The notes beneath the pieces are model-generated. The model ran no database searches. It was not told where the DNA came from and saw only the letters and a program-made list of their open reading frames with translations. Source: Poseidonia sp. (GTDB lineage: Archaea; Thermoplasmatota; Poseidoniia; Poseidoniales; Poseidoniaceae). From it: a DNA stretch of 64,000 nucleotides. Made by a program: the position numbers and the translations under genes. Shown here piece after piece: positions 42,536 through 54,611 of the stretch (its first letter is position 1; each line of letters starts with the position of its first letter). The stretch lies in the NCBI GenBank assembly GCA_965661285.1, contig CBFIDD010000002.1, positions 96,001 to 160,000 of the forward strand, in the 5' to 3' direction.

Positions 42536-43195
42536 ATGGAGTTCTTCCTTGACACCGCAGACGTTGACGAAATCAGAGAAATCGCCGCATGGGGCATCCT
42601 CGACGGCGTGACAACCAACCCGTCCCTCATCAAAAAATCCGGAAGGGATTTCAAGGAAGTTGTACGCGAAATCGCCGGCATTTGCTCAGGCCCAATTTCC
42701 GCCGAAGTCACCGCCATGGACACGCCTGGAATGGTGGAACAAGGGCGCGCACTCAAGGCAGAGCTGCCTGACAATGTCATCATCAAGATTCCATGCACGC
42801 CAGAAGGACTCGCAGCAACCAAAATTTTGACCGAAGACGGCATTGACACCAATGTCACGCTCATCTTCTCCGCATCACAAGCCCTGATGGCGGCCAAAGC
42901 CGGTGCTACCTACGTCTCCCCGTTCATCGGACGCATCGACGACACCGGCCACGACGGCATGGAACTCATCGCTGAGATCATGAACACCTGGGCCAATTAC
43001 AACCTCGACACGAAAGTGCTTGCTGCCTCTGTGCGTCACCCAACTCACGTGCTCCAGTGCATCCAACTGGGCGCACACACGGCGACCATGCCCGCCAAGA
43101 CCTTCCGCCAACTCATGAGCCATCCGCTGACCGACCGTGGACTCGAAGGCTTCATGCGCGATTGGGCCGAAGTCGAAAAGGCTGGCAAAGCGTGA
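42536..43195 (+). CDS. tal: Transaldolase (short TalC/FSA family)
   Basis: [31 protein letters not shown] (Glu/Phe residues typical of transaldolase rather than FSA). Confidence 0.92.
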
Positions 43196-43227
43196 CACCG
43201 GCCGATCTCTGACATCCAACAACGGCC

Positions 43228-43770
43228 TTATTTGCCGTGAGAAAACGCCACCAAATCATCGATAGGGAGATGATCGGCTGTGTCCCTACAATAGTGGGCC
43301 TTCACCACCGTACCGGATTCGTCAATCAGTATGTCAGCTGGAATGGTCGAAAGTTTGGAGACAGAGAGGGTCAAGGGAACATAACCTCGCATGGTTGCTT
43401 GAAGGAGGGTTAACGGGGACTTTGCAGCACCAAAAACGAATTTCCCAAAGGATTTCCGGATGCCGTTGTTGAGGAAGTGCTCGTAGGTTTCATCGGCTAC
43501 GATGGTGAACGGAGCGCTGTGCTTCTTCATACGCTTGGCCAATTCGTCAACACCCGCATCAAAAACACCCACCATCACGGCGTCCTTGCTAAACTCGTCC
43601 CACCGCTGAACAATTCTTCTGATTCTCATGTTGCACAATGGACAAGATGAAAATCGAAAGAAGGTGAGAATCACGCGCTTCCCTTTAACCTTGGACAGGT
43701 CAAAGACGGAACCGTCGATAGCGGGCAGGACAAGGTTTGGTGCAGAAGTGCCAGCAACAAGTCGTGTCAT
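43228..43770 (-). CDS. AhpC/TSA-family redoxin
   Basis: AP...LPAIDG, FFRFSSCPLCN (CxxC), PADILIDESG. Confidence 0.82.
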   Translation of the reverse strand: MTRLVAGTSAPNLVLPAIDGSVFDLSKVKGKRVILTFFRFSSCPLCNMRIRRIVQRWDEFSKDAVMVGVFDAGVDELAKRMKKHSAPFTIVADETYEHFLNNGIRKSFGKFVFGAAKSPLTLLQATMRGYVPLTLSVSKLSTIPADILIDESGTVVKAHYCRDTADHLPIDDLVAFSHGK

Positions 43771-43859
43771 GTAGTGAGCATCCTTGGCTCTTTAATCACC
43801 CTTCCTATTGTTGCGACCATCAGCCCCGGGGCCGGTGCACGAAGCCATGTTCTTTTTCC

Positions 43860-44885
43860 CTAGCGAGAAGCGAGCGTGAGGTTCTTCCACATCTCTTCTG
43901 GAACCTCCATGGCGAGTCGAAGACCGCCCATGGCGCCCAAACGGACGGGGTCGTCAACCACGTGAACGTTCACGTCGCCCATGTCGGAAAGGCGTCGCTC
44001 AATGAGGGCTCCAAGGCCCTTGATGGAGGAACCGCCGCCGGCGAGGACCATGTTCTTGCGGAACTCGTCGTGGTATTCGGGGTTGGACTCGGCGATGAGC
44101 TTCTTGACGTTCTCCACGATAGGGTCAACGATGGATTCGCAGGCGCGCTGCATGCAATCGGTGATGTCGAGGGTCATGGCCTTGCCTTCGATGGAAAAGT
44201 CAACCAGCACAGGCTCGTCAGGAGCGGCGGTGGACACGAAGGAGAACTGCTCTTTCCAGCGTCGGGCCATGTCCTTGGTGATTTGAGCACCGTTGTACTT
44301 GGACTGGATTTCCTTGATGAGTTGGTTGTCGACGAAGTCGCCAGCGTGTCCGGTGTGCATCTGGTCGCCAGGTCCGGGGATGGTTCCGTAGACACGGCAA
44401 AGGTCAGTAGTACCAGCGCCGATGTCAATGACGAGGGTGTGGGTGATCATATCAAGCGCGTAAGCGACAGCAAACGGCTCGGAGATGATCATGGCGGAGT
44501 TCACAGAGCCTGCGGCTGCGTCAAAAATGGCCGTTTTGTCAACGTGGCTGGCTTCAGCGGGCGCACCGATGACGGCGACCACACGGTCGTATTCCTCTGG
44601 GTCGGAAAGACCGATGAGGTGTGTGATGAAGTGAGCGATGAATTCGCGGTCTTCAAGAGTATCCTTGATGACGCCGAGTTCGAGCGGACGGAAGAGATTC
44701 AGTGCGAGGCGGTTCTTCAGCGCTTCATTGCCAAAAAGCACATCTCGCTTCAAGAAGTTGCGTGCAATAGGGTCCTTTGGCGTACCGATGACCGTCAATT
44801 CTTCCACTTCGTGGCTGTCGGAGGAGACCATCACCGAGCGGAAGGTTCCCAAGTCGATTCCAATATACAACACGTCGTTTGCCAT
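43860..44885 (-). CDS. Actin-like ATPase, MamK/Salactin-like
   Basis: GIDLGT, ISEPFAVAY, DIGAGTTD, LAGGGSSIKGL actin motifs, plus G.PKD, GT.PGP.DQ, KEQFSFV and LRLA.E.P...W segments recalled from MamK. Confidence 0.88.
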   Translation of the reverse strand: MANDVLYIGIDLGTFRSVMVSSDSHEVEELTVIGTPKDPIARNFLKRDVLFGNEALKNRLALNLFRPLELGVIKDTLEDREFIAHFITHLIGLSDPEEYDRVVAVIGAPAEASHVDKTAIFDAAAGSVNSAMIISEPFAVAYALDMITHTLVIDIGAGTTDLCRVYGTIPGPGDQMHTGHAGDFVDNQLIKEIQSKYNGAQITKDMARRWKEQFSFVSTAAPDEPVLVDFSIEGKAMTLDITDCMQRACESIVDPIVENVKKLIAESNPEYHDEFRKNMVLAGGGSSIKGLGALIERRLSDMGDVNVHVVDDPVRLGAMGGLRLAMEVPEEMWKNLTLASR

Positions 44886-45007
44886 AGGCGTAACCGTCTT
44901 TCGGATACCGCTTCACTTTATGAAGAGTCCCCACCATCATGATTGGCAAGGGTGTACGAACGCCATCCCCGGCCTTCTATAGAACACTGAATGAGGGGCG
45001 CAAATAC

Positions 45008-46024
45008 TCAACACCAGGCCTCGCAAGCATGGCAATACCATGCGGCATGCTCCACATACATCTCGGCCATACCACCGCAATCTGTGCATTCCTTCAGGGT
45101 ATTTTCCCCGCAGATATCCACCACCATTTGGACGTGATAGGCTTCGTCGATCTTAAGTTGTTCCCGCATGGCCCAAAGCAGTTGATCTTCGCTTGGAGAA
45201 ATGATGCCGTCTTCAAGCACCATCTCAACCACGTTGCGGTAGTCTTGGATGGTTGAGAAGTCACGGTGGTCAAGGACCACACCGCCTTTTTCGGCCACGA
45301 TGTCCGTGCCACCGGGGTCGTCTACAAAGATCACGAAGGACGCTGGTTTGAGACTGTCATCTCGCAACTCAAAGGAAATCCGTGCACCGTCCAGGTTGGC
45401 GTAGACGAGTTTGGATGAGCGGTTGATGACGTTGGTGATCGAACGTGCGGTGGTTTCAGCGTTTGGTCCACGCTTCCAACCGGTTGGGCTTCGTTCGTTG
45501 TAGGCATAGAACTCCGTCCCTTTCCCGGGATATTCAAGACGAATTTCTTCTCCACCGTCAAAACCGTTGGAGACGATGGTGATGGCGGCGACTTCGGTTG
45601 AAAGGATGTTATCGTCGTCATCAAAGCTGATCATCAGCGGCTTGCGTTCCTCGGCCGCAGCGTTGTAGTGACCCTGCATGCCGCTCATCCATTTGTCTTC
45701 AAGCCGCTTGAGGGTTTGCTCTTGTTCTCCCGTGAGGTTCTTATCGATGCCGAGCACATTCGCGAGTTCACCTGCGGCCATCTCTTGTTTGAATTGCTCA
45801 ATTTTCTCAGCGTCTCTCCTGTGTGTCGGGGGCTGGATGCGCTTGCGTTCTTCTTTGTAGTTCGGGTCAGCCCACTCGTGGCCACATGAACCGCATTGAA
45901 GGTACCCCTTCATCGTCGAATCTTGAGCATCGCCACCGCATCGCGGACAATCACCATCTTCGTTGTAACCAAGGTTGGATTTGGCTTCCTCACGCCCTTT
46001 CCTCATGCCACCAAAGCCTGCCAT
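45008..46024 (-). CDS. Hypothetical protein with N- and C-terminal Zn ribbons and a TerB-like helical segment
   Basis: CPRCG...CGSCGHEW; LEDGIISPSEDQLL...REQLKID; CTDCG...WYCHAC. Confidence 0.75.
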   Translation of the reverse strand: MAGFGGMRKGREEAKSNLGYNEDGDCPRCGGDAQDSTMKGYLQCGSCGHEWADPNYKEERKRIQPPTHRRDAEKIEQFKQEMAAGELANVLGIDKNLTGEQEQTLKRLEDKWMSGMQGHYNAAAEERKPLMISFDDDDNILSTEVAAITIVSNGFDGGEEIRLEYPGKGTEFYAYNERSPTGWKRGPNAETTARSITNVINRSSKLVYANLDGARISFELRDDSLKPASFVIFVDDPGGTDIVAEKGGVVLDHRDFSTIQDYRNVVEMVLEDGIISPSEDQLLWAMREQLKIDEAYHVQMVVDICGENTLKECTDCGGMAEMYVEHAAWYCHACEAWC

Positions 46025-46061
46025 GTCGGTTTGGTAGACTTTGCTTTCTATGAATGCTTTG

Positions 46062-46892
46062 TTAGTCGTGAATGGTTCGTGCTTTGAGCCCGTACCTCAC
46101 CAAACCCTCTTGGCCGTAGAGTCGGCGGAACACCAACTCCATTTGGGCATCCATTTCGAACGTCGTGTCCTCATCATCAACGGTCAAGAAGACACCACTG
46201 GGGCCGTCTTCGAGGCTGAGGAGCACCGTGCTCATACCACCAAGAATCGGGGCACGTAGAGAAAATTCTGACGGCGCACCTGCAGCAGACAGGGTGGTCC
46301 ATGTTTGAATCGAACCGCGTCGCTGAAGGTTAACGCTGGCGGTGTTGGTTCCGTTCACCATGTGGGAAAATCGGGGCGGCCAAATGATGTCATCGTCGGC
46401 TGACTGTGCGTGAAGTTGCAGCCGTGATGATGCGGCCTCCTCGTATTGTGCCCGAGAGACATAGGCCCCTTGACTCACGTGAGCCTCGGAGAGTTCCTGA
46501 GTCCATGCGGCTTCAATGGCTTCATTGAAGGCTGGATCGACTTCAACCTCCAGGGCAACCTGAGCGATTTCAACGTCAGCACCTTTCTTCGCAACGACGA
46601 TGATCGCTTGGTCGCTCATCAAGACCTCCCAAGGTGATTCACCTTCGCTGTCATCATCGTGAATCGATACCCCCGTCGCAGCGCTAAGGCTGAGGTCGTC
46701 TATTCCATCAGGGACGGAAATGGAGGCGATCTCATCGTGATTTATTCGGTGGAGCAAACCGGCGACAGCAAGCGTGGTCGCATCGCTATCGGCACCAAAC
46801 ACCCGCACACCGTTGAGAACAAACGGAGATTGAACCACGGTGTAGGTCGACTCGTGATGAAGCACATAGCCCATCCACACTTCTGTTGACAT
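46062..46892 (-). CDS. Thiolase-associated DUF35/OB-fold protein with extended N-terminus
   Basis: GAYVS, WPPR, G.IQTWT....GAPSEF, MELVFRRLY...VRYG.K; start overlaps the thiolase stop. Confidence 0.8.
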   Translation of the reverse strand: MSTEVWMGYVLHHESTYTVVQSPFVLNGVRVFGADSDATTLAVAGLLHRINHDEIASISVPDGIDDLSLSAATGVSIHDDDSEGESPWEVLMSDQAIIVVAKKGADVEIAQVALEVEVDPAFNEAIEAAWTQELSEAHVSQGAYVSRAQYEEAASSRLQLHAQSADDDIIWPPRFSHMVNGTNTASVNLQRRGSIQTWTTLSAAGAPSEFSLRAPILGGMSTVLLSLEDGPSGVFLTVDDEDTTFEMDAQMELVFRRLYGQEGLVRYGLKARTIHD

Positions 46893-48061
46893 CAGCGTTC
46901 CCTCCCGAACACGTGTACAGAACATGTGGCGCCGGAGCCGCCAACGTTGTGCGTCAGTGCATGCTCCGCATCTCGAACTTGACGGTTGGTGTCTGCTTGG
47001 CCGCGAAGTTGTTTGAACACCTCGACCACTTGCCCGGTCCCGGTTGCACCGAGGGGATGTCCTTTGGATTTCAGGCCTCCACTTGAGTTCACCGTGGTGG
47101 TTCCTTGGTTGAGGCGGCCTTCACCCTCTCGCGCAAAGCGCCCGCCCTCTCCACGTTGAGCAAACCCGAGGTCCTCTGTCGCAAGGACTTCAGCGATGGT
47201 GAAGCAGTCATGGACCTCTGCGACATCGATTTGGCGCGGCGTGAGTCCTGCCATGGCGTAGGCCTTGGAGGAGGCGGTTTGGGTGGCTTTGAGTTGGGTG
47301 ATGCTCGGGCGGTCATGGAGGGCAAGGTTATCCGAAGCGGCACCAGCTCCTTTGACCCAAACGGGTGTATCGGTGAACTTCTGAGCGATGTGGTCGGCGG
47401 CCAAGACCACGCATGAAGCACCATCTGAGGTCGGACAGCAATCGTACAGCGTCAGCGGGTCGGCCACCATGAACCCACCGGCTGCCTTTTCGAAACTGAC
47501 TTCTTTTTGGATGTGGGCGTCCTTGTTCATGGACCCGTGGAGGTGGTTCTTCACGCTGACATGGACCAAGTCATCGTGGGTTGCGTCAAATTCGTGAAAG
47601 TAACGACGGGCCATAAGCGCGTAGGTGCCTGGAAACGTCAACCCGGCCAAACGCTCCCATTCTGTGTCGCCCGATACGCCAAGCCAGTAGCGTTTTCGTT
47701 CGGGCGTGAGGTCGTTCATTTTCTCAATCCCACCGGCGACGACAACATCCGCTTGACCGCTCTTGATGGCCATCCAGGCGTCCCGGAACGCAAAACCAGA
47801 GGAAGCACATGCGTTCTCGACCCTACGGACCGCCACCCCTTCCATGCCCGAATGTTCGGTGAGCAAGGCGGCGGTGTTGCCAAGTTGCGACCCACCAAAG
47901 GCGATGCTACCAATGAACGCTTCATCAACGGTCGCAGGGTCAAAATCGCCATCAATGCTGGCGAAGGCCTTGGAGGCCGCTTCAGCCCACATGCCTTTGA
48001 GACCGAGCGGGTGATTTCCGAACTTTGTTTGGCCAGCACCGACGACGGCGACATCCACCAT
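46892..48061 (-). CDS. Archaeal-type thiolase (acetyl-CoA acetyltransferase)
   Basis: VENACASSG, GIEKM, CCPTSDGA, EVHDCFT, GHPLGATG, HNVGG. Confidence 0.92.
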   Translation of the reverse strand: MVDVAVVGAGQTKFGNHPLGLKGMWAEAASKAFASIDGDFDPATVDEAFIGSIAFGGSQLGNTAALLTEHSGMEGVAVRRVENACASSGFAFRDAWMAIKSGQADVVVAGGIEKMNDLTPERKRYWLGVSGDTEWERLAGLTFPGTYALMARRYFHEFDATHDDLVHVSVKNHLHGSMNKDAHIQKEVSFEKAAGGFMVADPLTLYDCCPTSDGASCVVLAADHIAQKFTDTPVWVKGAGAASDNLALHDRPSITQLKATQTASSKAYAMAGLTPRQIDVAEVHDCFTIAEVLATEDLGFAQRGEGGRFAREGEGRLNQGTTTVNSSGGLKSKGHPLGATGTGQVVEVFKQLRGQADTNRQVRDAEHALTHNVGGSGATCSVHVFGRER

Positions 48062-48168
48062 GAAGAGACGAGGAGGACGAGGCATTTCATACCCCCGCAT
48101 CGTTTGCCATCAAGACCGAAGGATTCACGCAACCCAGCCCGTAGGGTTCTTGAACAGGTCGCACCCGC

Positions 48169-52403: not shown

Positions 52404-54611
52404 TCAATCTGCGTAGTAGGATTCGGGGTTTGGTTCGGGCTTGAGACCCTTGCGTTGACGGATTTCACCGACCACCGTGTCAAACAGTTGAGGTGGCAAA
52501 ATCTCGAAGCCGAGGTTCTCGGTGTTCCAAACGGCGCGTCCCTGAGAGGCGGCACGGATGTCGTTGGAGAACCCGAAGGTCTCGGCGATTGGGATAATAC
52601 CGACCACGGTGGTCACGGCACCCTCGGATGGCATGTCTTCTATGATACCACGACGGGTGGTGACTTCACGGGTGACTTGACCGAGCCAATCGTTTGGTAC
52701 GGAGATAAACGCTTTCTGCATGGGTTCGAGAAGTACCGTCTTGGCTCGCATCATGGCACCCTTGATGCCGTTTCGAACGGCTGGGATGGTCTGAGCGGGG
52801 CCACGGTGAATGGCGTCTTCGTGGAGTTTGGCGTCAACCAGTCGAACGAACATCCCTTGAACGGGTTCGTCGGCAACCGGGCCCTTGACACAAACTTCGT
52901 TGAACGCTTCGATGATGAGTTCACGAGTTTCGTGAAGGTTCTGGATACCTTTGGTGTCGTTGACGAGAACGTTGGTGCCGTTGATGGCGTAGATCTTGCG
53001 CATCACGTCTTTGTCCATGCCGTATTCTCCGAACTTGCTGCCGACTTCCTTCGCATCTTTGTTTCGGACCGGGCCATCTCCGAGTTCACCTGCTCGCAAC
53101 GCAGCGACGACGTCGTCGGGAAGGGCTTCAATCTCAAAGAAGAAGCGGTTGTGGCGGTTGGGCGATTTTCCTTCAAAGGAATTCCCTCGGTTCGAACCCT
53201 GAATACCTTCTCGGTAAACGACGATCGGTGGGCTGACCTTGACCTTGATGTTCTGCTCTTCTTCAATGCGGTAAACGGTGATTTCAAGGTGGAGTTCGCC
53301 CATACCGGCCAGGAGAGCCTCTCCGGTTTCCTGGTTGGTCGTGACTTGCAACGAGGCGTCGGCCTTAGCCAACGAACGGAGTGCGTCGATGAACTTGGGC
53401 AAGTCCTTCATGCTCTTCGGCTCAACCGCAACGGTGACCACAGGGTCGGAGTAGTGGCGAATCGCTTCAAACGGCGTGAAGTCCTTGTCTCGAGAGAGGG
53501 TGACACCAGCAGCAGCCGAGCGAATACCGGTCACAGCTGCGATGTTGCCGGCCACGACTTTGGGCACGGTGATGCGGTCGCCCCCGACCATCATGGCCAC
53601 TTGCTGGACACGCTCGGGCTTTGCAGCACCGATGGCGTAAACGGATTCACCTTGGTTGATGGCCCCTGAGTACACACGACCAACAGCCACTTCACCGGCG
53701 TGAGGGTCCATCCAAATCTTGGTGACCATCATGGCGAGTTCTGCTTCGGGGTCGCAGTTCATCATAGCCTGACCGACCTCAGAGTCCAAATCGCCCGTCC
53801 AAATGTTGGGAATACGGTATTTTTGAGCCTCAATGGGGCCAGGGAGTTTGGTGACCGCCATGTCGAGCAAGACTTCGTGAACGGGTGCTTTCTGAGCCAG
53901 CGTCTTTTGGTCTTCGTTGTTACAGTACTCAAAGATCTCCTTGAACGAGATGCCAGACTTGGCCATGTAGGGCACGGTGATACCCCAGTTGTGGTAGGCC
54001 GAACCAAACGCCACCGTTCCGTCTTGAACAGAAACTTGCCAGGCCTTTTCCATTCCCTGCGGAGCAAACTGCTTGATGAGTTTGTTGACTTTCTTGATGG
54101 TCTCCGTAAATCGAGCCATCATGTCTTCGGGCGTGACCTGCAATTCGTTGATGAGGCGGTCCACCTTGTTGATGAACAACACGGGTTTCACCTTCTCTTT
54201 CAGAGCCTGGCGAACCACGGTTTCGGTTTGCGGCATCGGTCCTTCAACTGCACAAGCGAGGATAAAGCAGCCGTCAACAGCACGCATGGCACGGGTAACG
54301 TCGCCACCAAAGTCAACGTGGCCAGGGGTGTCGATGAGGTTGATGAGGTAGTCCGTCCCTTCAACGGCGTGGACCATGGAGGCGGATGCTGCGTTGATGG
54401 TGATTCCACGAGCGGATTCCTGTTCGTCAAAGTCAAGCACACGGGCAGCACCGGCGAGGTCGTTGGACATCATTCCTGCACCTGCGATGAGGTTGTCGGA
54501 CAGGGTGGTCTTTCCGTGGTCGATGTGAGCTGCGATGCACAAGTTCCTGATTTGAGGAAGAACGTGCATGACTTCTGTGGCCTTCTTGATGTTGTCTTCT
54601 TTGCGTCCCAT
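52404..54611 (-). CDS. fusA: Translation elongation factor EF-2
   Basis: AHIDHGKTT, RGITI, DTPGHVDF, NKVD, GMGELHLE, diphthamide loop HEDAIHRG. Confidence 0.97.
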   Translation of the reverse strand: MGRKEDNIKKATEVMHVLPQIRNLCIAAHIDHGKTTLSDNLIAGAGMMSNDLAGAARVLDFDEQESARGITINAASASMVHAVEGTDYLINLIDTPGHVDFGGDVTRAMRAVDGCFILACAVEGPMPQTETVVRQALKEKVKPVLFINKVDRLINELQVTPEDMMARFTETIKKVNKLIKQFAPQGMEKAWQVSVQDGTVAFGSAYHNWGITVPYMAKSGISFKEIFEYCNNEDQKTLAQKAPVHEVLLDMAVTKLPGPIEAQKYRIPNIWTGDLDSEVGQAMMNCDPEAELAMMVTKIWMDPHAGEVAVGRVYSGAINQGESVYAIGAAKPERVQQVAMMVGGDRITVPKVVAGNIAAVTGIRSAAAGVTLSRDKDFTPFEAIRHYSDPVVTVAVEPKSMKDLPKFIDALRSLAKADASLQVTTNQETGEALLAGMGELHLEITVYRIEEEQNIKVKVSPPIVVYREGIQGSNRGNSFEGKSPNRHNRFFFEIEALPDDVVAALRAGELGDGPVRNKDAKEVGSKFGEYGMDKDVMRKIYAINGTNVLVNDTKGIQNLHETRELIIEAFNEVCVKGPVADEPVQGMFVRLVDAKLHEDAIHRGPAQTIPAVRNGIKGAMMRAKTVLLEPMQKAFISVPNDWLGQVTREVTTRRGIIEDMPSEGAVTTVVGIIPIAETFGFSNDIRAASQGRAVWNTENLGFEILPPQLFDTVVGEIRQRKGLKPEPNPESYYAD

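Follow-up and report, generated by a model that had tools for sequence, protein, structure and literature searches.

ActA, a MamK-family actin encoded beside a conserved zinc-ribbon protein in Poseidoniales archaea

ActA compared with described actins

MamK and Mad28, the actins of magnetotactic bacteria, are treated in a study of these filaments (PMC10653835), and actin filament architectures are treated more broadly in PMC5597319. The MamK branch is referred to in a passage of PMC2651865 as 'primarily bacterial but also some archaeal'. BeeR, which PMC11929497 presents as a MamK relative of non-magnetotactic bacteria, is a three-stranded tubular actin of Verrucomicrobiota (PDB 8R2N; NCBIfam model NF053558); because its hosts are non-magnetotactic, it shows that actins of the MamK type can serve other purposes. 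Among archaeal actins, salactin has MamK as its nearest subfamily, and its DNA-partition phenotype is qualified as 'not definitive' in the relevant passage of PMC10746226; an earlier note on the DNA analysed here, which had cited salactin as a MamK-related filament linked to DNA partitioning, agrees with that source. Here we describe ActA, a 341-residue MamK-family actin-like ATPase encoded on the minus strand at positions 43860-44885 of a 64,000-nucleotide stretch of Poseidonia sp. DNA (the window). The gene was delineated as an ATG-start open reading frame (ORF) and classified by NCBIfam and PDB matches and a fold model. Judged by the names of close relatives in databases, the window comes from Poseidoniales (Marine Group II archaea, MGII), and the source assembly amounts to 1.98 Mb in 8 contigs and is 93% complete. 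ActA is a resident gene of Poseidoniales and one of two sister MamK-family paralogs; its family placement, conservation, synteny, co-inheritance with neighbouring genes and codon bias are matters of observation.

By its sequence profiles and modelled fold, ActA is MamK-like and not an ordinary MreB, as the earlier note had proposed. Its top NCBIfam match is the MamK model (NF040964), at 363.8 bits for a cut-off of 400 that it does not reach; the second paralog, ActB, scores 341.8 bits on the same model, also under the cut-off, which is attained by 18 of 77 full-length relatives. The other NCBIfam models gave 212.7 bits for BeeR (cut-off 530), 95 and 86.9 bits for two MreB models (cut-offs 293 and 365.75, respectively) and 60.1 bits for salactin (NF053533, cut-off 400), and no ParM model matched at E 0.01. 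With a salactin score that far under its cut-off, the label 'Salactin-like' in the earlier note did not stand. The best Pfam match is MreB_Mbl (PF06723, 94 bits), followed by Salactin (PF25229), whose 51.4 bits exceed the gathering score of 27.1 yet lie below the MreB_Mbl score on the same stretch. NCBIfam separates actin families better than the broad MreB_Mbl model, which also matches one other ORF of the genome, a 642-residue open frame that we take to be DnaK from the Hsp70 signature motifs in its translation. Relatives of ActA and ActB are labelled 'rod shape-determining protein' in public records; 'rod shape-determining protein MreB' is an automatic annotation label and is misleading.

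Comparisons with known structures agreed with the profile scores. Against PDB sequences, ActA matched MamK with 258 bits (E 8.9e-76, residues 2-336), BeeR with 151 bits and MreB with ~57 bits. An AlphaFold2 model of ActA, built from a 27-sequence alignment (mean predicted local distance difference test score, pLDDT, of 88.6), had as its best fold match the MamK filament chain 5LJV (template modelling (TM) scores of 0.88/0.92, 39% identity; 39-40% in Foldseek). The corresponding values were TM 0.83 and 30% identity for BeeR, and TM ~0.78 and 23-25% for MreB. All ten motifs quoted in the earlier note are present in ActA in the order given there. Those of the actin fold are GIDLGT (residues 9-14), SEP (135-137), DIGAGTTD (154-161) and AGGGS (282-286). 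The others, claimed as MamK-like, are GTPKD (34-38), VIGAPAEAS (105-113), GTIPGPGDQ (167-175), KEQFSFV (211-217), ACESIVDPIVE (248-258) and LRLAMEVPEEMW (322-333), and a residue-by-residue alignment to MamK (PDB 5LJW and 5JYG) confirmed that likeness. The phosphate-1, connect-1 (Glu136), phosphate-2 and adenosine motifs show no variation across 27 ActA and ActB sequences, in which D11, G13, E136, D154, G156, G158 and G283-S286 are invariant.

With ActA as query, 1.84 billion cluster representatives yielded 1346 matches at E ≤0.001, including 151 at ≤1e-30. Outside MGII, the nearest sequences have 43-48% identity to ActA, and many of them carry N-terminal extensions of 190-900 residues with no Pfam match. 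In the three sequences that were inspected these extensions are charged and of low complexity, two of them with a heptad-like start. Named clusters of relatives come from ANME-2 (anaerobic methanotrophic archaea)/Methanosarcinales, Nitrospira ('MamK family'), Acidobacteriota, Gemmatimonadota, Verrucomicrobiota and Nitrospinota. Also among them are the MamK-like protein of AMB-1 (P0190) and a fusion of FtsZ with MamK (P0167) that bears the name 'Magnetosome protein MamK'. Another relative, P0150, is no closer to Magnetospirillum MamK than ActA is.

We built a quick IQ-TREE phylogeny (103 rows, 337 columns, LG+C20) supported by the Shimodaira-Hasegawa-like approximate likelihood ratio test (SH-aLRT) only. 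Its rows are the 77 full-length representatives minus the MGII-B one, 17 MGII sequences, nine other Thermoplasmatota and E. coli MreB as outgroup, with P0190 and P0167 as the labelled magnetosome proteins. Salactin, volactin, crenactin, Ta0583 and ParM are not among the rows and are set apart from ActA by profile scores only. ActA and ActB are each monophyletic (SH-aLRT 100) and sisters to each other (99), and together they nest among relatives that attain the MamK cut-off in 18 of 77 cases. A separate 13-row clade (98), which does not contain ActA, holds the two named magnetosome proteins, and an outer clade (98) holds the BeeR-like sequences. Neither ActA nor ActB groups with the BeeR-like clade or with E. 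coli MreB, and in this quick tree ActA is not placed as an ordinary MreB. The sister of ActA and ActB is, tentatively, a group of 14 N-extended sequences, whose SH-aLRT of 93 falls short of the 95 that the tool takes as its mark. The only GTDB genome with an N-extended actin is that of a candidate division KSB1 bacterium, which carries two MamK-type actin genes in tandem (L077:5341-10065), the first with an N-terminal extension of ~370 residues and the second short. As the nearest outside clade includes this KSB1 bacterium, acquisition of the actins from bacteria may hold.

Compared with the described systems, ActA is most like MamK of Magnetospirillum (5LJV, 5LJW, 5JYG), with which it shares length, fold, nucleotide-binding motifs, the catalytic Glu and a similar C-terminal helix. 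In contrast with magnetosome MamK, which is characterised by ATP-dependent assembly into two-stranded, non-staggered filaments, it has no magnetosome genes nearby, lies outside the magnetosome clade, bears Asp273 at the A278 position and has an archaeal host. Its candidate partner, a zinc-ribbon orphan, also differs from MamJ and McaA/B. The MamK-like islet paralog of AMB-1 (P0190, MAMKL_PARM1) is likewise a second MamK-family paralog in one genome, but it is 32% identical to ActA and in a different clade, and the genes of ActA and ActB are unlinked, each with its own partner genes. MamK and MamK-like are reported to co-assemble, which suggests by analogy that paralog pairs can work together; ActA and ActB may perhaps behave similarly. 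Relative to BeeR, which is in a separate clade, ActA lacks the N-terminal extension of 30-50 residues, its first strand starting from residue 5. It also lacks the long charged N-terminal tail of Halobacterium salactin. Salactin is found in Methanotecta and ActA in Thermoplasmatota, and the neighbour of ActA is fixed where PMC10746226 notes poor synteny for salactin. Nevertheless, as an archaeal actin whose nearest subfamily is MamK, salactin could be an analogue of ActA in function, with a role in DNA partitioning. With MreB, ActA has the actin fold in common (94 bits on PF06723), but identity is 23-25% and its genome has no MreC or MreD match. The ParM/Alp plasmid actins differ in that ActA is chromosomal and conserved across the order, with no ParM profile match and no repeat array. 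Its nearest outside relatives are the N-extended bacterial MamK-type actins (P0124-P0139 and the KSB1 protein), at 44-48% identity.

Conserved neighbours and distribution of ActA and ActB

We compared neighbours by tblastn at 20 loci each of ActA and ActB, drawn from three Poseidoniales families. In 20 of the 20 ActA loci, the gene immediately preceding ActA, on the same strand, codes for a zinc-ribbon protein, ZnR (49-75% identity). In the window ZnR is a 338-residue protein encoded at 45008-46024 on the minus strand, with four-Cys zinc ribbons at its N- and C-termini, and is a candidate partner of ActA. The earlier note had described ActA as being without partner context, overlooking both this conserved upstream gene and a paralogous second module. 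The comparison of distribution and synteny that it had proposed thus uncovered a fixed neighbour, as well as an actin in 98 of the 151 genomes of the order.

All eight Cys residues of ZnR are invariant in 21 sequences, and the middle region is well conserved. A profile search collected 309 relatives; among the 120 listed, those with names belong to MGII/Thermoplasmatota or unclassified Euryarchaeota, and all are called 'hypothetical' or mislabelled as L37ae. Its protein-atlas clusters contain Thermoplasmatota only. ZnR is an orphan family. Pfam gave sub-threshold zinc-ribbon matches, in which the ribbons weakly resemble those of TFIIB and IS1595, and a weak, sub-threshold TerB match was found in 10 of 21 members. 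The ZnR model (mean pLDDT 74.5) had no convincing Foldseek match. With VIA-align, residues 140-250 resembled a small, common insertion domain that occurs in FliD and in sheath and nozzle proteins of phages (Z 8-11), and the C-terminal helices weakly resembled ENT (Z 5). These fold and TerB matches point to no function. Prediction of an ActA-ZnR complex scored 0.00 in two runs, which we count neither for nor against the pairing.

ActB, the 47%-identical paralog of ActA, is encoded on contig C4 of the same genome (L022:7992-8996, minus strand), outside the window. It belongs to a second module (L022:6631-12222) comprising the genes for a subtilase, ActB and a coiled-coil protein. At each of the 20 ActB loci, ActB is preceded by an S8 subtilase of ~1000 residues (1014 in this genome) and followed by a coiled-coil protein of ~430 residues (436 in this genome), and the lipid-synthesis gene PcrB is close by; a rhodopsin gene is also nearby in the source genome. 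The subtilase carries a signal peptide, with a membrane anchor at its C-terminal end (residues 984-1003), and in Marine Group IIb (MGIIb) loci its ORF overlaps the start of ActB. The coiled-coil protein ends in an acidic C-terminal tail. We found no hydrophobic segment in ActA, ActB, ZnR or the coiled-coil protein, and inspection of the source genome revealed no promoter motif common to the ActA and ActB modules.

At E ≤1e-20, the 98 Poseidoniales genomes with an ActA match are distributed among families f1 (74/74, plus the source genome), f2 (2/2) and f3 (21/74). When only genomes at least 90% complete are considered, 41 of 58 have such a match. Actins are present in all sampled Marine Group IIa (MGIIa) genomes and not in the sampled small-genome MGIIb genera: no ActA match was detected in any of the 45 genomes of genera g12, g13, g14, g15, g17 and g22, listed members of which have 1.3-1.6 Mb and are 86-97% complete. 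Most positive genomes (94/98) have at least two actin matches, one at 67-100% and one at 44-49% identity where these are listed, and four (G024, G144, G135 and G141) have the ActB type only. ZnR was detected in 95 of the 151 genomes; its genera are those of ActA, and three of the ActB-only genomes (G144, G135 and G141) gave no match to it. The coiled-coil protein occurs in 96 genomes and follows the genera of ActB, including those same three. Outside Poseidoniales, 7 of ~237 genomes of the phylum have a match at E 1e-30, with 39-47% identity. In G003, a one-contig genome of the source's family, the ActA match is in two pieces that meet at base 1176001 (G003:C1:1175435-1176456; residues 1-152 and 153-341), which is a frameshift or an assembly error.

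A link of the actins to motility was considered and ruled out, as archaellin (PF01917) does not track them. In genera g10, g11 and g19, actins are present in 11 of 11 genomes with no archaellin match, and in g17 and g22 archaellin is present in 11 of 12 genomes with no actin.

Possible roles of ActA

From these sequence comparisons, we hold with moderate confidence that ActA is a polymerising MamK-family actin working with ZnR on some cargo. ActA would bind and hydrolyse ATP through its conserved actin-fold motifs and, judging from its family membership, would polymerise into filaments. The strict adjacency and co-inheritance of ZnR suggest that it acts with ActA, possibly as a low-abundance adaptor or regulator tying the filament to its cargo. 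A separate promoter-like element before ActA and the codon rank of ZnR (353rd of 760 ORFs) fit an abundant subunit with a scarce partner. The cargo would be neither a magnetosome nor a peptidoglycan elongasome. If the analogy with salactin and ParM is followed, the strongest single candidate for this cargo is DNA or the nucleoid. ActB would then form a second module with the membrane-anchored subtilase and the acidic-tailed coiled-coil protein. As a MamK-like actin that always adjoins ZnR and has a sister copy, ActA suggests an internal skeleton of MGII cells.

Several observations weigh against this proposal. The ActA score is under the NCBI cut-off for MamK. No recognised DNA-binding or filament-binding domain was found in ZnR by Pfam, Foldseek or VIA-align, and the region 43000-47500 contains no centromere-like repeats, only short chance ones. 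No homologue of ZnR, the coiled-coil protein or the subtilase was detected at E 1e-3 beside the actins of nine other Thermoplasmatota loci or at the KSB1 locus, which has two actin paralogs like Poseidoniales, but in tandem. Since whole genera lack the actin system, it is not essential to the order. Furthermore, Asp273 of ActA (in PEYHD) falls opposite the Asp that the A278D mutation introduces into MamK, and the structure of that mutant (PDB 5LJW) is titled 'non-polymerising'; because Asp273 sits at the A278 position, the longitudinal contact of ActA cannot equal that of MamK. This residue, together with the score under the MamK cut-off, could mean that ActA is a non-polymerising ATPase of the acetate and sugar kinase, Hsc70 and actin (ASKHA) superfamily, with the MamK fold kept and filament formation lost. 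We regard this as very improbable. The column of Asp273 varies among 16 ActA orthologues, of which 12 have D and one each has A, K, N or E, in a protein that is otherwise 68-92% conserved; in 11 ActB sequences the residue is Q, P, N, S or A. The ActA model fits a MamK chain in the filament state best, and the studied members MamK, BeeR and Mad28 all polymerise, as far as the relevant parts of PMC11929497, PMC10653835 and PMC5597319 report.

Other functions can be envisaged for a filament. ActA and especially ActB could be membrane-proximal filaments like those of MreB, volactin and crenactin, organising the envelope or S-layer and setting the form of the cell. The position of ActB between the 1014-residue subtilase and the coiled-coil protein in 20 of 20 loci, with PcrB adjoining, is in keeping with such a scaffold, as are the signal peptide and C-terminal anchor of the subtilase, the overlap of the protease ORF with the start of ActB in MGIIb loci and the public label 'rod shape-determining protein'. 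Nevertheless, that label is automatic, the envelope link is ActB's and not ActA's, and none of ActA, ActB, ZnR and the coiled-coil protein has a hydrophobic segment. With no MreC or MreD in the genome and MreB profile scores far under their cut-offs, we consider a scaffold unlikely. ActA could also be a segregation machine for chromosomes or plasmids, of the ParM/ParR or salactin kind, ZnR being a DNA-binding adaptor to a dynamically unstable filament. This would agree with a two-gene unit of an actin and a small partner, with the weak likeness of the two ZnR ribbons to those of TFIIB and IS1595, and with salactin, whose nearest subfamily is MamK and whose loss disturbs DNA distribution at low ploidy according to passages in PMC10746226. 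However, the zinc-ribbon matches of ZnR are below the Pfam cut-offs and no DNA-binding fold was recognised in it; ZnR is upstream of the actin, whereas the partner in parMR is downstream; no parC-like repeat array is present in 43000-47500; and ParM profiles do not match ActA at E 0.01. Segregation as the sole function therefore appears quite unlikely to us.

A broader proposal, which we put forward as speculative and doubtful, is that Poseidoniales have a two-filament MamK-type cytoskeleton composed of ActA with ZnR and of ActB with the coiled-coil protein and the surface-anchored protease. Such a cytoskeleton, maybe derived from bacteria, would organise the nucleoid, the envelope or both, its loss marking the streamlined MGIIb, and ActA and ActB would perhaps co-assemble.

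To our knowledge, nothing is known of MGII cell biology. Our literature search found no paper on the ActA gene (MGII or Poseidoniales with MreB, MamK or actin), subscription journals and supplements being outside its scope. MGII archaea are described as globally abundant and uncultured in PMC6336850, a genomic study that treats motility and makes no mention of MreB. A codon-optimised and strongly conserved MamK-type actin pair with lineage-specific partners would be the first cytoskeleton candidate for MGII, and would add a second archaeal branch to the MamK/salactin group. The natural contrast between MGIIa with actins and small-genome MGIIb without them offers a comparison that requires no culture, and ActA, ZnR, ActB and the coiled-coil protein are small and soluble enough for heterologous work.

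Codon usage, promoter elements and other features of the locus

ActA is a native, strongly codon-biased gene. None of its 341 codons is TTA, CTA or TCA, which at the genome mean of 1.35% would happen by chance with a probability of ~0.01, and only 28 of the 760 coding-like ORFs of at least 250 residues in the genome are devoid of these codons. The EF-2 gene (52404-54611, minus strand) has one in 735 codons, and the other seven ORFs of at least 600 residues in the window have 10-17 each. Ranked by codon log-odds among the 760 ORFs, ActA is 37th, ActB 11th and ZnR 353rd. These counts and ranks, together with the order-wide occurrence of the gene at 67-98% identity, substantiate the EF-2-like codon bias of a native gene that the earlier note had suspected; the bias would suit a gene that is probably well expressed. 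Contamination or recent transfer is ruled out as the source of ActA by order-wide synteny and native codon use.

Because ActA has no TTA, CTA or TCA codons, an antisense frame is open over 401 codons (43737-44942, plus strand). The opposite strand thus has no stop over the full length of ActA, as the earlier note had stated. This shadow ORF covers ActA and is not a gene, all homology being on the minus strand. At 401 residues it exceeds the real gene (341 residues), and a naive longest-ORF caller would choose the wrong strand.

The spacer between ZnR and ActA is ~70-160 nucleotides long. A TATA-like element (TTCATAAAG, 44916-44924, minus strand) lies ~35 nucleotides upstream of the ActA start codon as its putative promoter, and an A/T-rich element (TTCATAA, TTGATAT or TTGAAAT) aligns with it in 19 of 20 spacers, L031 having TCTAAAT. 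Given this conserved position, ActA probably has its own promoter. A second TATA-like element (ATTCATAGAAAG, 46044-46055, minus strand), located in the 37-bp gap upstream of ZnR, is the putative ZnR promoter. Just past the ZnR stop codon, a palindrome (TTCTATAGAA, ~44975-44984, minus strand) that is present in most Poseidoniaceae spacers and missing from MGIIb ones could be a terminator or a regulatory site.

The neighbours of ActA are genes for two transketolase halves, a transaldolase, an AhpC/TSA peroxiredoxin, the zinc-ribbon protein, a 287-residue protein and a thiolase. No magnetosome genes are among them, the whole genome not having been searched for mam genes. MreC and MreD families gave no match in the genome (93% complete), and as controls they matched in 7 and 5 of 14 genomes, respectively. 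The earlier note's statement that ActA has no mam or mreCD context therefore stands for the neighbour genes and for the MreC/MreD searches of the genome. The peroxiredoxin downstream of ActA was considered as a partner and rejected, being conserved in 0 of 20 loci. The ORF of 287 residues (46062-46925, minus strand), which has no Pfam or NCBIfam match and overlaps the end of the thiolase gene (46892-48100), was found by tblastn in 12 of 20 loci at 32-46% identity, with no MGIIb locus among them, and is not part of the actin unit.

Minor observations concern the wider relatives of ActA. The tandem actin genes of the KSB1 bacterium are followed by a gene for a protein with DUF4388 and Roadblock/LC7 domains. 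P0167, a protein of 768 residues from an uncultured bacterium, is a full FtsZ (Tubulin and FtsZ_C domains; 351 bits on TIGR00065) fused to a MamK-family actin domain (446 bits). Lastly, in Thermoplasmatota of family f19, a MamK-type actin homologue adjoins chemotaxis genes, with CheA upstream at one locus (L072:4459-7999) and CheD adjacent at another (L073:6995-8560).

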